A stretch of 64,000 nucleotides of DNA from Escherichia phage phi456. The translations under genes were made by a program, and so were the position numbers. This document shows positions 40,219 to 48,293 of the stretch, in pieces. The stretch lies in the sequence record OR339795. One strand, written 5' to 3'. The notes beneath the pieces were generated by a model that worked only from the letters and a program-made list of their open reading frames with translations, ran no database searches and had not been told where the DNA came from. The first letter of the stretch is position 1. Every line of letters begins with the position of its first letter.

Positions 40219-41413
40219 GGAAGGTGCGAATAAGCGGGGAAATTCTTCTCGGCTGACTCAGTCATTTCATTTCTTCATGTTTGAGCCGATTTTTTCTCCC
40301 GTAAATGCCTTGAATCAGCCTATTTAGACCGTTTCTTCGCCATTTAAGGCGTTATCCCCAGTTTTTAGTGAGATCTCTCCCACTGACGTATCATTTGGTC
40401 CACCCGAAACAGGTTGGCCAGGGTGAATAACATCGCCAGTTGGTTATCGTTTTTCAGCAGCCCCTTGTATCTGGCTTTCACGAAGCCGAACTGCCGCTTG
40501 ATGATGCGAAACGGGTGCTCTACCCTGGCACGGATGCTGGCTTTCATGTATTCGATGTTGATGGCCGTTTTGTTCTTGCGCGGATGCTGCTTCAAGGTTT
40601 TTACCTTGCCGGGACGCTCGGCGATCAGCCAGTCCACATCCACCTCGGCCAGCTCCTCGCGCTGTGGCGCTCCTTGGTAGCCGGCATCGGCTGAGACAAA
40701 TTGCTCCTCTCCATGAAGCAGATTACCCAGCTGATTGAGGTCATGCTCGTTGGCCGCGGTGGTGACCAGGCTGTGGGTCAGGCCACTCTTGGCATCGACA
40801 CCAATGTGGGCCTTCATGCCAAAGTGCCACTGATTGCCTTTCTTGGTCTGATGCATCTCCGGATCGCGTTGCTGCTCTTTGTTCTTGGTAGAGCTGGGTG
40901 CCTCAATGATGGTGGCATCCACCAAAGTGCCTTGGGTCATCATGACGCCTGCTTCGGCCAGCCAGCGATTGATGGTCTTGAACAATTGACGGGCCAGTTG
41001 ATGCTGCTCGAGCAGGTGGCGGAAATTCATGATGGTGGTGCGATCCGGCAGGGCGCTATCCAGGGATAATCGGGCAAACAGGCGCATGGAGGCGATTTCG
41101 TACAGGGCATCTTCCATGGCACCGTCGCTCAGGTTGTACCAATGCTGCATGCAGTGAATACGCAGCATGGTCTCCAGCGGATAGGGCCGTCGGCCATTGC
41201 CCGCCTTGGGATAAAACGGCTCGATGACAGCGGTCATATTCTGCCATGGCAGAATCTGCTCCATGCGGGAGAGGAAAATCTCTTTTCGGGTCTGACGGCG
41301 CTTAGTGCTGAATTCACTATCGGCGAAGGTGAGTTGATGGCTCATGATGTCCCTCTGGGATGCGCTCCGGATGAATATGATGATCTCATATCAGGAACTT
41401 GTTCGCACCTTCC
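40219..41413 (-). mobile_element. IS5 copy 1 (1195 bp) inserted in hsdS
   Basis: Termini ggaaggtgcgaa...; 4-bp direct repeat CTTA at 40215-40218 and 41414-41417. Confidence 0.9.
40365..41345 (-). CDS. ins5A: IS5 transposase
   Basis: 326 aa [12 protein letters not shown]... Confidence 0.9.
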
Positions 41414-41632
41414 CTTATTGGCTAGTTCTGGAAGCACGTAAGTAAATGTTTTATCAGCTGATAACCCATACCTTGTATAAATCTGACCGTAATGTATTGC
41501 TGGAAAACCACTTTCAACGAAATCTTTTTTCTGTAGTCCATTGCCACGTATGAAATCGCCAAGCTCTCCCAGTGACAACCATTCAACATCAACTCCATCC
41601 AGCAATTTGTTCAGAAAGTTCAACCCACTCAT
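41414..41632 (-). pseudogene. hsdS: HsdS N-terminal fragment (about 73 codons) upstream of the IS5 insertion
   Basis: [30 protein letters not shown]...; start overlaps the hsdM stop; frame continues in-register with the downstream fragment once IS5 and one CTTA are removed. Confidence 0.8.
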
Positions 41633-43191
41633 GATTGCGCCTCGTCACCTTCAATCTTTGCCACAATTGCATCAATATCTTTACGCAACTGGTCGATTTT
41701 GCTGACCGTGGTTTTCAGCTCAGCATTCAGCTCAGCAATATCGATAATTTCGCGGTTATCTTTCGCTTCCACATAGCTGCTCACCGACAGGTTATAGTCA
41801 TTAGCAACAACGGCCTCAAACGCGACAGATTTCGCCAGATGAGCAACATTTTCTTTGCTGGCAAATACCTGCATAATCTGGTTGATATGGGCATCAGTCA
41901 GGATATTGTTGTTGGTCTCTTTTTTGAACAGTTCGCTGGCGTCAATAAACTGAACGTTGGTATCCGTTTTATGTTTAGACAGAACCAGAATGTTTACGGC
42001 AATGGTGGTGCCAAAGAATAGGTTCGGAGCCAGTGAAATTACGGTTTCGACATAGTTATTATCGACCAGATACTGACGGATTTTCTGCTCTGCGCCGCCA
42101 CGGTAAAAAATACCCGGGAAGCAGACAATCGCAGCACGACCTTTGGCCGAAAGATAGTTCAGCGCATGTAATACAAACGCAAAGTCAGCTTTGGATTTGG
42201 GGGCCAGAACGCCAGCCGGGGCAAAACGCTCATCGTTAATCAGCGTCGGGTCATCGCTGCCAATCCATTTCACCGAATACGGTGGGTTAGATACGATGGC
42301 GTCAAACGGTTTTTCATCTCTGAAGTGCGGCTCAGTCAGTGTATTACCCAGCTTGATATCAAACTTGTCGTAGTTGATATTGTGCAAAAACATGTTCATA
42401 CGCGCCAGGTTATAGGTCGTATGGTTGATTTCCTGACCGAAAAAGCCTTCTTCGATGATGTGGTTATCAAACTGTTTTTTCGCCTGCAACAACAGTGAGC
42501 CGGAACCCGCTGCCGGGTCGTAGATTTTGTTAACGCTGGTCTGCCCGTGCATAGCCAGTTGTGCAATCAGCTTGGAGACGTGCTGCGGTGTAAAGAACTC
42601 GCCGCCGGACTTACCGGCATTCGCGGCATAGTTAGAAATCAGGAACTCATAGGCATCACCGAACAGGTCAATCTGATGTTCGTGGAAGTCACCAAGTTTT
42701 AGCCCTTCAACCCCTTTCAGAACCGCAGCCAGGCGGGCATTTTTATCTTTAACGGTGTTACCCAGGCGGTTACTGGTAGTATCGAAATCAGCAAACAAAC
42801 CTTTGATGTCAGCTTCTGAAGGATAACCGTAAGCAGAACTTTCGATAGCAACGAAGATGCTGTTTAAATCTGCATTCAGTCTGTCATTAGTATTTGCTTT
42901 CGCAGCTACGTTGCAGAAAAGCTGACTGGGGTAGATGAAGTAGCCTTTAGTTTTGATGGCATCGTCTTTAATGTCATCAGTAATTACGCTGTCATCCAGT
43001 TTCGCATAACAGATACTGTCATCACCGGCTTCAATATAACTGGAAAAATTTTCGCTGATAAAACGGTAGAAAAGTGCGCCCAGAACGTATTGCTTAAAAT
43101 CCCATCCATCGACCGAACCCCTGACATCGTTAGCAATTTGCCAGATTTGACGATGAAGCTCTGCACGTTGTTGAATACTTGTCATTTTCAT
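41629..43191 (-). CDS. hsdM: Type I methyltransferase subunit, EcoR124-type
   Basis: 520 aa; AdoMet motif [10 protein letters not shown] and catalytic NPPY. Confidence 0.9.
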
Positions 43192-43335
43192 CCACTTATT
43201 TCAGGCTTATGTAATTGGCGGTGATTCTACAGCAACTTGGATGCTTTAGCAGTTCGGACATTAGGCTACGAATGACATGCCTAGAGGTTTGTTAAGCCGC
43301 AAAGTGCTGGTGCTTTATGCCTGTGAAGTTTATAA

Positions 43336-43362
43336 TTGTGTACACATAACGAGTACACGAGG
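43336..43362 (+). promoter_or_regulatory. phd-doc promoter/operator
   Basis: Palindromic gtgtacac and gagtacac half-sites immediately upstream of phd. Confidence 0.6.
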
Positions 43363-43367
43363 TGTTT

Positions 43368-46658: not shown

Positions 46659-46751
46659 TGATCCTCCTCCAGAATTGACATGGTCAATAACGCCCGGCTG
46701 AGAAAACCGGTCATTACTGACCTATATTATAGATGGATCAAACGAAAATAA

Positions 46752-46768
46752 TAGATTTATTAGTGCAT
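46752..46768 (-). promoter_or_regulatory. C1 operator-like site between coi and c1
   Basis: Reverse complement atgcactaataaatct, about 13/15 match to the consensus core. Confidence 0.4.
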
Positions 46769-46978
46769 TTATTGTGAATCTAACTGGTTAGTTGCCATGA
46801 GATATTCGATTGTGTCAGTGAGGTCATCCAGGTCGTCTTGGGTGATGCGGTACTCCTGATTGGATATCTTTGAGTAGTGTTCAGCAATGGCGCGGGCTGC
46901 GTCGGTTTCGGCAGGGTCTACAGATAAAGCGTTAGAGCAATGTCTAACGTCGTCGATGGTTGGTTGAATGAAAGCCAT
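46769..46978 (-). CDS. coi: Coi, C1 inactivator
   Basis: 69-aa acidic protein immediately upstream of c1, same size as P1 Coi. Confidence 0.7.
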   Translation of the reverse strand: MAFIQPTIDDVRHCSNALSVDPAETDAARAIAEHYSKISNQEYRITQDDLDDLTDTIEYLMATNQLDSQ

Positions 46979-47097
46979 AATTATGCCTCACTGTATTGAC
47001 AACACAGAGCCTGAAGCTCTGACCTACTGTTTCACCCATGATCCATGCTGGGGTAATCTAACAACATTGCGCTGTGTGTAAGATGAGCAATGCATAG

Positions 47098-48293
47098 GGA
47101 AGGTGCGAACAAGTTCCTGATATGAGATCATCATATTCATCCGGAGCGCATCCCAGAGGGACATCATGAGCCATCAACTCACCTTCGCCGATAGTGAATT
47201 CAGCACTAAGCGCCGTCAGACCCGAAAAGAGATTTTCCTCTCCCGCATGGAGCAGATTCTGCCATGGCAGAATATGACCGCTGTCATCGAGCCGTTTTAT
47301 CCCAAGGCGGGCAATGGCCGACGGCCCTATCCGCTGGAGACCATGCTGCGTATTCACTGCATGCAGCATTGGTACAACCTGAGCGACGGTGCCATGGAAG
47401 ATGCCCTGTACGAAATCGCCTCCATGCGCCTGTTTGCCCGATTATCCCTGGATAGCGCCCTGCCGGATCGCACCACCATCATGAATTTCCGCCACCTGCT
47501 CGAGCAGCATCAACTGGCCCGTCAATTGTTCAAGACCATCAATCGCTGGCTGGCCGAAGCAGGCGTCATGATGACCCAAGGCACTTTGGTGGATGCCACC
47601 ATCATTGAGGCACCCAGCTCTACCAAGAACAAAGAGTAGCAACGCGATCCGGAGATGCATCAGACCAAGAAAGGCAATCAGTGGCACTTTGGCATGAAGG
47701 CCCACATTGGTGTCGATGCCAAGAGTGGCCTGACCCACAGCCTGGTCACCACCGCGGCCAACGAGCATGACCTCAATCAGCTGGGTAATCTGCTTCATGG
47801 AGAGGAGCAATTTGTCTCAGCCGATGCCGGCTACCAAGGAGCGCCACAGCGCGAGGAGCTGGCCGAGGTGGATGTGGACTGGCTGATCGCCGAGCGTCCC
47901 GGCAAGGTAAAAACCTTGAAGCAGAATCCGCGCAAGAACAAAACGGCCATCAACATCGAATACATGAAAGCCAGCATCCGTGCCAGGGTGGAGCACCCGT
48001 TTCGCATCATCAAGCGGCAGTTCGGCTTCGTGAAAGCCAGATACAAGGGGCTGCTGAAAAACGATAACCAACTGGCGATGTTATTCACCCTGGCCAACCT
48101 GTTTCGGGTGGACCAAATGATACGTCAGTGGGAGAGATCTCAGTAAAAACCGGAAATAACGCCAGAAATGGTGGAAAAAATAGCCTAAATAGGCTGATTC
48201 GATGTGTTTGCGGGAAAAAAATCGGCCCAGATCCGCGAAATTTTAATCAGCGAGTCAACTTGGGAAGAAATGACCTGCTTATTCGCACCTTCC
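47098..48293 (+). mobile_element. IS5 copy 2 (1196 bp) between coi and loxP; transposase carries an in-frame TAG
   Basis: Termini ggaaggtgcgaa...; 4-bp direct repeat ATAG at 47094-47097 and 48294-48297; inverted relative to copy 1. Confidence 0.9.
47166..48146 (+). pseudogene. ins5A: IS5 transposase with premature stop
   Basis: TAG where copy 1 has CAG (...KNKE-stop versus ...[10 protein letters not shown]), splitting the frame into the 47166-47639 and 47655-48146 ORFs. Confidence 0.85.

Follow-up and report, generated by a model that had tools for sequence, protein, structure and literature searches.

Does a segment of DNA that is bracketed by two inverted copies of an insertion sequence (IS) represent one of two interchangeable isomers, or is its orientation the one in which it arose? 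The question is raised by positions 40219-48293 of a 64,000-nucleotide (nt) stretch from Escherichia phage phi456 (sequence record OR339795; hereafter, "the window"), in which two IS5-family elements, here termed copy A and copy B, enclose hsdM, the addiction module phd-doc, and the immunity genes c1-coi. An initial annotation had described the pair as a built-in substrate for rearrangement and had left open which of two isomers the present orientation is. Its outer coordinates are exact and the opposite orientation of the copies was borne out by a repeat search and by reading of the ends; likewise, gene identities assigned by protein domains and by comparison with phage P1 agree with the three gene groups named for the segment. 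The location of copy A inside hsdS had gone unmentioned. According to our analysis, it is very probable that the two copies are independent insertions whose opposite orientation is incidental, that the present layout is the original, uninverted one, and that the 5.7 kb between the copies could be inverted by RecA with an almost neutral outcome.

Anatomy of the Two Insertion Sequences

The repeat search over the window returned a long inverted repeat with arms at 40332-41415 and 47096-48179 (1084 nt, 99% identity), which far exceeds chance, and two short, weaker repeat extensions that reach 40212 and 48300. The arms are parts of two complete elements (Table 1), both of which start and end with the 16-bp sequence GGAAGGTGCGAA(T/C)AAG, as read from the ends; the 16-bp terminal inverted repeats are GGAAGGTGCGAATAAG and GGAAGGTGCGAACAAG. 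The DNA actually bracketed spans 41414-47097 and measures 5,684 bp, so that the "8-kb segment" of the initial annotation applies only when both IS copies are counted (8,075 bp).

Pairwise alignment and a six-way comparison of the inner 1045 nt of the two copies revealed three mismatches (99.7% identity), which divide the shared tract into perfect blocks of 151, 64, 287, and 539 nt, the last being the longest. The outer ~152 nt, a non-coding stretch 3' of the transposase stop codon, differ at 40 positions. The transposase of copy A is intact and matches the Pfam domains DDE_Tnp_1 (E = 1.6e-35) and DUF772 (3.3e-21). The corresponding frame of copy B differs from it by three substitutions, one of which is a stop codon (Q158*); because of this nonsense codon in its transposase, copy B is non-autonomous. 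Both copies combine a DDE_Tnp_1 plus DUF772 transposase with terminal repeats and a short target-site duplication (TSD), and are, thus, members of the IS5 family. The TSDs of both copies—CTTA for copy A and ATAG for copy B—were verified against empty sites in relatives or in P1, which has a single ATAG at 94518-94521, the empty site of copy B. When read in IS orientation, the DNA bordering the outer ends is also alike beyond the duplication (CAGCTTA preceding the IS at 40212-40218 and CAGCTAT at 48294-48300); this similarity may reflect a target preference that is wider than the 4-bp TSD, or chance.

Separate Origins and Relative Age of the Copies

The RefSeq label for such copies is "IS5-like element ISKpn26 family" transposase. 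Over the 1045-nt bodies, copy A differs from classical IS5, as represented in phage 434B (OL657227), at 68 positions and copy B at 69, corresponding to ~6.5%. The usual ISfinder rule for isoforms asks for ~95% nucleotide identity or more, and neither copy belongs to IS5 in the strict sense, as gauged against the phage 434B copy. Thus, the earlier designation as an "IS5" pair is right at the level of the family and does not extend to IS5 proper. In the outer 152 nt, copy A is free of differences to classical IS5 and copy B shows 40. These comparisons show copy A to be a mosaic, in which the outer end of IS5 is joined to a body of the ISKpn26 type. The switch from one to the other falls where the transposase gene ends (outer part, 40219-40370).

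The same mosaic is found in an unrelated contig, with no differences in the outer part and three in the body; among complete E. coli genomes, 307 records, of chromosomes as well as plasmids, match a 420-bp query across the mosaic junction at 99% or more. On account of this wide occurrence (the unrelated contig and the ~307 E. coli records), the idea that gene conversion involving an IS5 and copy B had formed copy A within the plasmid was rejected; that origin is also countered by the alleles of copy A, which are its own at all three sites at which the copies differ. In many relatives with an uninterrupted hsdS, the flanks of copy A align with an overlap of exactly 4 bp (e.g., NZ_CP101265.1, 77333-77631 and 77628-77924). 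The hsdS::IS junction itself, which is common to both isomers, was absent from 72,556 PLSDB plasmids, 5,426 complete E. coli genomes, the GTDB representative genomes, and the JGI metagenomes; therefore, these collections hold no evidence for either isomer elsewhere. Copy A is a private, recent insertion. In our explanation, a widely circulating IS5/ISKpn26 mosaic transposed recently and independently, probably from the host genome, into codon 73/74 of a type IC hsdS, splitting the gene.

The history of copy B reads differently. It interrupts imcA, and the identical insertion site is occupied in pHFQ1, pEC21Z063-100K, pYLMB30b, and phage RCS47, in the annotation of which imcA is given as a pseudogene fragment beside an "IS5D". 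With a query composed of the IS and both its flanks, 106 PLSDB records cover at least 80%, and ~45 of the 60 listed cover 100%. Copy B is an old, clade-defining insertion in P1-like elements. Its body is identical to that of the pHFQ1 copy, nonsense codon included, and the codon is intact in pEC21Z063-100K; Q158* is a lineage marker that ties this plasmid to pHFQ1. Copy B was inherited here together with the nonsense mutation in its transposase.

In RCS47 (12220-18236) and pPSS-08-2_2 (5226-13052), the imcA/IS site also holds a block of IS1 and dmsABC (dimethyl sulfoxide reductase), the position of which relative to the IS5-family copy varies among relatives, and the site looks like a hot spot for cargo in this clade. 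Several PLSDB records have an altered inner flank of copy B and were considered as natural cases of IS inversion; the one inspected, pPSS-08-2_2, was rejected, as its alteration consists of the IS1-dmsABC block lying between coi and the IS.

Orientation of the Bracketed Segment

A single crossover between the two copies would leave each IS with one CTTA-side and one ATAG-side flank. The flanks match pairwise, CTTA with CTTA and ATAG with ATAG. The order of genes, hsdR-hsdS-hsdM-phd-doc-pdcA-pdcB'...c1-coi-imcB-imcA'-IS-imcA'-loxP-cre, is collinear with P1 and with those relatives that lack copy A (pHFQ1, pEC21Z063-100K, and pYLMB30b). Finally, all three sites at which the copies differ carry the allele of their own lineage, with copy A agreeing with the unrelated mosaic copy and copy B with the pHFQ1 copy. 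Matching TSDs, collinearity, and unshuffled single-nucleotide polymorphisms (SNPs), taken together, identify the present arrangement as the parental isomer that has never been inverted, and the notion of an arbitrary orientation, one of two equivalent isomers, could not be upheld. Across the outer 506 nt of the shared tract, neither crossover nor gene conversion has left a trace; its inner 539 nt are free of markers and uninformative in this regard. An even number of flips would be indistinguishable from none.

Two considerations weigh against this explanation of the locus. The TSDs CTTA and ATAG do not fit the consensus YTAR for IS5 targets. Furthermore, if the record had been assembled from short reads only, the orientation between inverted repeats of 1 kb would be unfixed, and the parental layout could be the assembler's choice. 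Such an ambiguity is a generic risk wherever inverted repeats of this size are longer than the reads, and draws no support from the sequence at hand. The orientation that was chosen for the 5.7 kb yields paired TSDs and a restorable hsdS, exactly as predicted for the parental form, and the three SNPs internal to the repeats are resolved and consistent with their lineages, which suggests that the repeats were not collapsed; it is, therefore, very unlikely that the layout was set by the assembler. Nothing in the sequence contradicts the explanation by a parental isomer.

Capacity for Inversion and Its Consequences

The copies share 1045 nt of inverted homology with three mismatches, well above the minimal efficient processing segment, which amounts to tens of bp. 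This tract, at 99.7% identity, would be ample for RecA-dependent inversion of the 5.7-kb interval, and a minority inverted isomer is plausible in a recA+ host. The description of the pair as a recombination substrate, thus, holds by what is generally known of RecA, with the correction that the copies are not identical.

A flip is expected to leave the phenotype unchanged or nearly so, because its breakpoints lie in the dead genes hsdS and imcA, and because Pphd and Pc1/Oc1ab, being inside the segment, would travel along with the genes that they serve. An hsdM promoter, assumed to be situated in the hsdM-phd intergenic region, would also move along. Copy B parts the P1coi promoter and the Oc1d operator (~48410-48439) from imcB-coi-c1, so that P1coi is already disconnected, and the positions of hsdR, loxP, and cre would be unaffected. 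The inversion would neither create nor repair nor alter a reading frame. With breakpoints in dead genes and both promoters inside, little weight attaches to the fact, stressed in the initial annotation, that a flip would carry the immunity repressor and the addiction module. We regard it as very improbable, with no observation in its favour, that RecA-driven flipping maintains mixed isomers with a regulatory effect on c1/coi, or that the pair acts as a new composite transposon. Were the latter true, the transposase of copy A, acting on the outer ends, would move a cassette of HsdM methylase, phd-doc, and the C1 repressor to other replicons.

Alternative Architectures

An architecture of inverted IS elements with near-identical 16-bp outer ends and one intact transposase (that of copy A) calls to mind a composite transposon of the Tn5/Tn10 type, for which hsdM, phd-doc, and c1-coi would be the cargo of 40219-48293. 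The outer flanks are CTTA on one side and ATAG on the other, and no common TSD surrounds the unit. Moreover, the supposed cargo belongs to the P1 backbone and retains its native order, relatives possess copy B alone together with an intact hsdS, so that the two ISs arrived separately, and the 8.07-kb unit is found nowhere else in the searched collections. As both a flanking TSD and foreign cargo are missing, we rejected an origin as a composite transposon, to which we assign a very low probability, with future activity of this kind being conceivable.

An origin of the present layout in an IS-IS inversion, or in an odd number of them, is very improbable, and a net inversion is refuted by the paired TSDs and by collinearity with the relatives. 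In its favour, the inverted 1045-bp homology is in place, and inversions between IS copies have been documented for other plasmids of the P1 type (PMC6906374). After an odd number of crossovers, the flanks would be mixed, yet the TSDs are paired; in addition, the two halves of hsdS are properly oriented toward each other on either side of copy A and together restore an intact gene, and the order hsdM-phd-doc...c1-coi-imcB-imcA'-IS-imcA'-loxP-cre is the same as in P1 and the relatives.

A programmed site-specific switch, after the model of the P1 C-segment or of phase-variable hsdS loci, is suggested by the presence of a type I hsdS and the adjoining recombinase gene cre, and can practically be discounted, since a single loxP lies in the window, outside the segment (which rules out inversion by Cre/lox), the repeats are whole transposable elements present at hundreds of unrelated loci instead of short crossover sites, copy A occurs in no relative, so that the configuration is unconserved, and a flip would neither restore nor alter any reading frame. 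The dedicated recombinase, paired short sites, and conserved layout that characterise programmed invertible segments of the Cin/cix, shufflon, and hsdS types were not found for this segment.

Disruption of the Type I Restriction-Modification Locus

Copy A lies within hsdS of a type I restriction-modification (R-M) operon that comprises hsdR, hsdS, and hsdM. In silico excision of the IS with one copy of the TSD, joining 41632-41414 to 40214-39195, restores an HsdS of 412 amino acids (aa) that differs by one aa from the HsdS of pHFQ1 and pEC21Z063. The rebuilt protein contains a central TAELTAELTAEL repeat (TAEL three times), which we take to be linked to type IC systems. Beside the split hsdS, hsdR and hsdM are intact. 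The type I system has most likely lost its function by the split, and the insertion should abolish restriction and modification alike because HsdS is needed for both.

A further frame of 356 aa (39195-40265, minus strand; start MTESAEKNFPAYSHLPKL) begins with an ATG at 40265, within the outer end of copy A, and continues in phase into hsdS from codon 74 onward. If transcribed, this frame could give rise to an N-terminally truncated HsdS fusion; inspection by eye revealed no convincing ribosome-binding site for it.

Gene Content and Genomic Setting

From one IS to the other, the bracketed segment contains the hsdS 5' stump, hsdM, phd, doc, pdcA, a truncated pdcB, an IS1, a remnant of the antirepressor gene ant, c1, coi, imcB, and an imcA stump (Table 1). 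C1 and Coi matched no Pfam model and are identified by their difference of only two aa each from the P1 proteins. A direct repeat links 45424-45723 with 3873-4172 (86% identity), the latter lying within an intact ant (3189-4223); the former is what remains, at the 3' end, of a second antirepressor (KilAC) gene beside c1.

Table 1. Coordinates of the features in and around the segment bracketed by the two IS5-family copies
Feature	Position	Strand	Remarks
hsdR	35957-39073	-	1038 aa; EcoR124_C domain; outside segment
hsdS, 3' part	39195-40214	-	codons 74-412 + stop; outside segment
TSD CTTA (copy A)	40215-40218 (left), 41414-41417 (right)
Copy A, IS5-family element	40219-41413	-	1195 bp; inside hsdS
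Transposase of copy A	40365-41345	-	intact; 326 aa
A/B mismatch sites	A 40521, 40586, 40874; B 47990, 47925, 47637
hsdS, 5' part	41414-41632	-	codons 1-73; inside segment
hsdM	41629-43191	-	520 aa; N6_Mtase and HsdM_N domains; inside segment
Alignment block with P1	43292-44644		P1 87970-89322
Pphd equivalent	43308-43336		mapped from P1 annotation
phd	43368-43589	+	addiction module
doc	43589-43969	+	addiction module
pdcA and truncated pdcB	43953-44644	+	pdcB ends at P1 89322 equivalent
IS1 variant	~44644-45412	-	91-92% identical to other window IS1 copies
Antirepressor (KilAC/ant), 3' remnant	45413-45806	+
c1 repressor	45807-46658	-	283 aa; 2 aa from P1 C1.100
Alignment block with P1	45808-47097		P1 93232-94521
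Pc1/Oc1ab equivalents	46726-46769		mapped from P1 annotation
coi	46769-46978	-	69 aa; 2 aa from P1 Coi
imcB	46944-47039
imcA stumps	47058-47097 and 48294-48371
TSD ATAG (copy B)	47094-47097 (left), 48294-48297 (right)
Copy B, ISKpn26-type element	47098-48293	+	1196 bp; in imcA
Transposase frame of copy B	47166-48146	+	broken by TAG 47637-47639 (Q158*)
Alignment block with P1	48294-48576		P1 94518-94800
P1coi/Oc1d equivalents	48410-48439		outside segment
Oc1e/P4cre	48500-48545		outside segment
loxP	48560-48593		exact match; sole copy in window; outside segment
Type III res and mod	52120-56996		970 aa and 653 aa; both reading frames complete

The window is part of an E. coli P1-like phage-plasmid (Punavirus-type). 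Identity to P1 amounts to 95.5-98.9% over the mapped blocks, and the backbone elements phd-doc, c1-coi-imc, loxP-cre, res-mod, and a darB-like gene are present. What was not found at the P1 position is an intact set of lpa, pacA with the pac site, and pacB. In pYLMB30b, an IS1 at the same place precedes lpa, pacA, pacB, ash, icd, and ant; relative to that plasmid, lpa-pacA-pacB-ash-icd and ant are missing beside the IS1, save for the last ~395 nt of ant, and the deletion is common to pHFQ1 and pEC21Z063-100K. P1 89323-93231 lacks a counterpart here, and the window contains no further match to P1 86500-94800. This is a typical IS1-adjacent deletion; the IS1 truncates pdcB, the 3' part of which is lost, and the late activator, the enzymes for packaging, and the pac site are gone as well. 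Because lpa-pacAB are lost at the P1 position, the element is, as judged from the 64-kb window only, probably a non-packaging plasmid derivative of the phage.

Downstream of loxP lie cre, the type III res-mod genes, and a darB-like gene, and the window proteins include Cre, Res, and Mod domains. The darB-like helicase open reading frame after res-mod exceeds 2049 aa (region 52120-63995). The plasmid, thus, carried two R-M systems, of which the type I system alone is disrupted.

Remote from the segment, a cluster of IS1 copies (23531-24301, 28498-29265, and 29783-30553, the last inverted) and a 184-nt fragment (19832-20015) brackets an island at 19832-30553 that codes for an autotransporter (24503-28000, 1165 aa), an AraC-type regulator (20555-21355), and transposases of the IS3 family. 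Further recombination substrates, direct as well as inverted, are provided by these IS1 copies.

Implications and Comparison with Known Systems

Inverted IS pairs are common in enterobacterial plasmids, and recombination between them is a textbook matter. What the locus yields is a corrected annotation, with copy B, in imcA, as an ancient marker of a clade, copy A as a private and recent knock-out of a type IC hsdS, and the layout as ancestral. More informative than the IS pair are, in our opinion, the disruption of the specificity subunit of the type I system and the loss of lpa-pacAB that is linked to IS1. For typing and assembly, the locus is a reminder that short reads cannot fix the orientation of the 5.7-kb interval.

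Among type I systems, the locus resembles the type IC members EcoR124I/II and EcoDXXI, with an HsdR that carries the EcoR124_C domain. For EcoDXXI, the resemblance extends to the neighbourhood, as, according to the P1 annotation, phd-doc shares 98% identity with the DNA that lies upstream of hsd in EcoDXXI. Unlike in these systems, hsdS is split here by copy A after codon 73, and the system is presumably inactive.

Classical IS5, as known from K-12 and from the phage 434B copy, has the length (~1195 bp), the 16-bp ends, and the 4-bp TSD in common with both copies, and its transposase likewise contains the DDE_Tnp_1 domain, with 5 of 326 aa differing. It is unlike both copies in the body (68-69 of 1045 nt) and unlike copy B also in the outer 152 nt (40 differences).

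The closest counterparts of copy B are those in phage RCS47 and related P1-like plasmids, which occupy the same site in the same orientation to coi and cre and are at least 99% identical to it; its Q158* also occurs in pHFQ1. In RCS47 and pPSS-08-2_2, IS1 and dmsABC cargo adjoins the imcA element.

For the pair as a whole, the comparison is with the P1-like plasmids pSvP1 (ISEc84) and pTZ20_1P (IS26), in which IS-mediated inversions of the backbone have been described (Venturini et al. 2019, PMC6906374); in pTZ20_1P, it was from swapped flanking repeats that the IS26-mediated inversions were inferred (PMC6906374). IS-mediated inversion in P1-like elements is, thus, already known, and the inverted pair described here is an ordinary feature. 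All three elements belong to the same replicon family, have two inverted copies of one IS in a P1 backbone, and lend themselves to the same flanking-repeat diagnostic. They differ in its outcome: while pSvP1 and pTZ20_1P have swapped or reverse-complementary repeats and a backbone inverted with respect to P1, the repeats of copies A and B are unswapped and the segment between them is collinear with P1.

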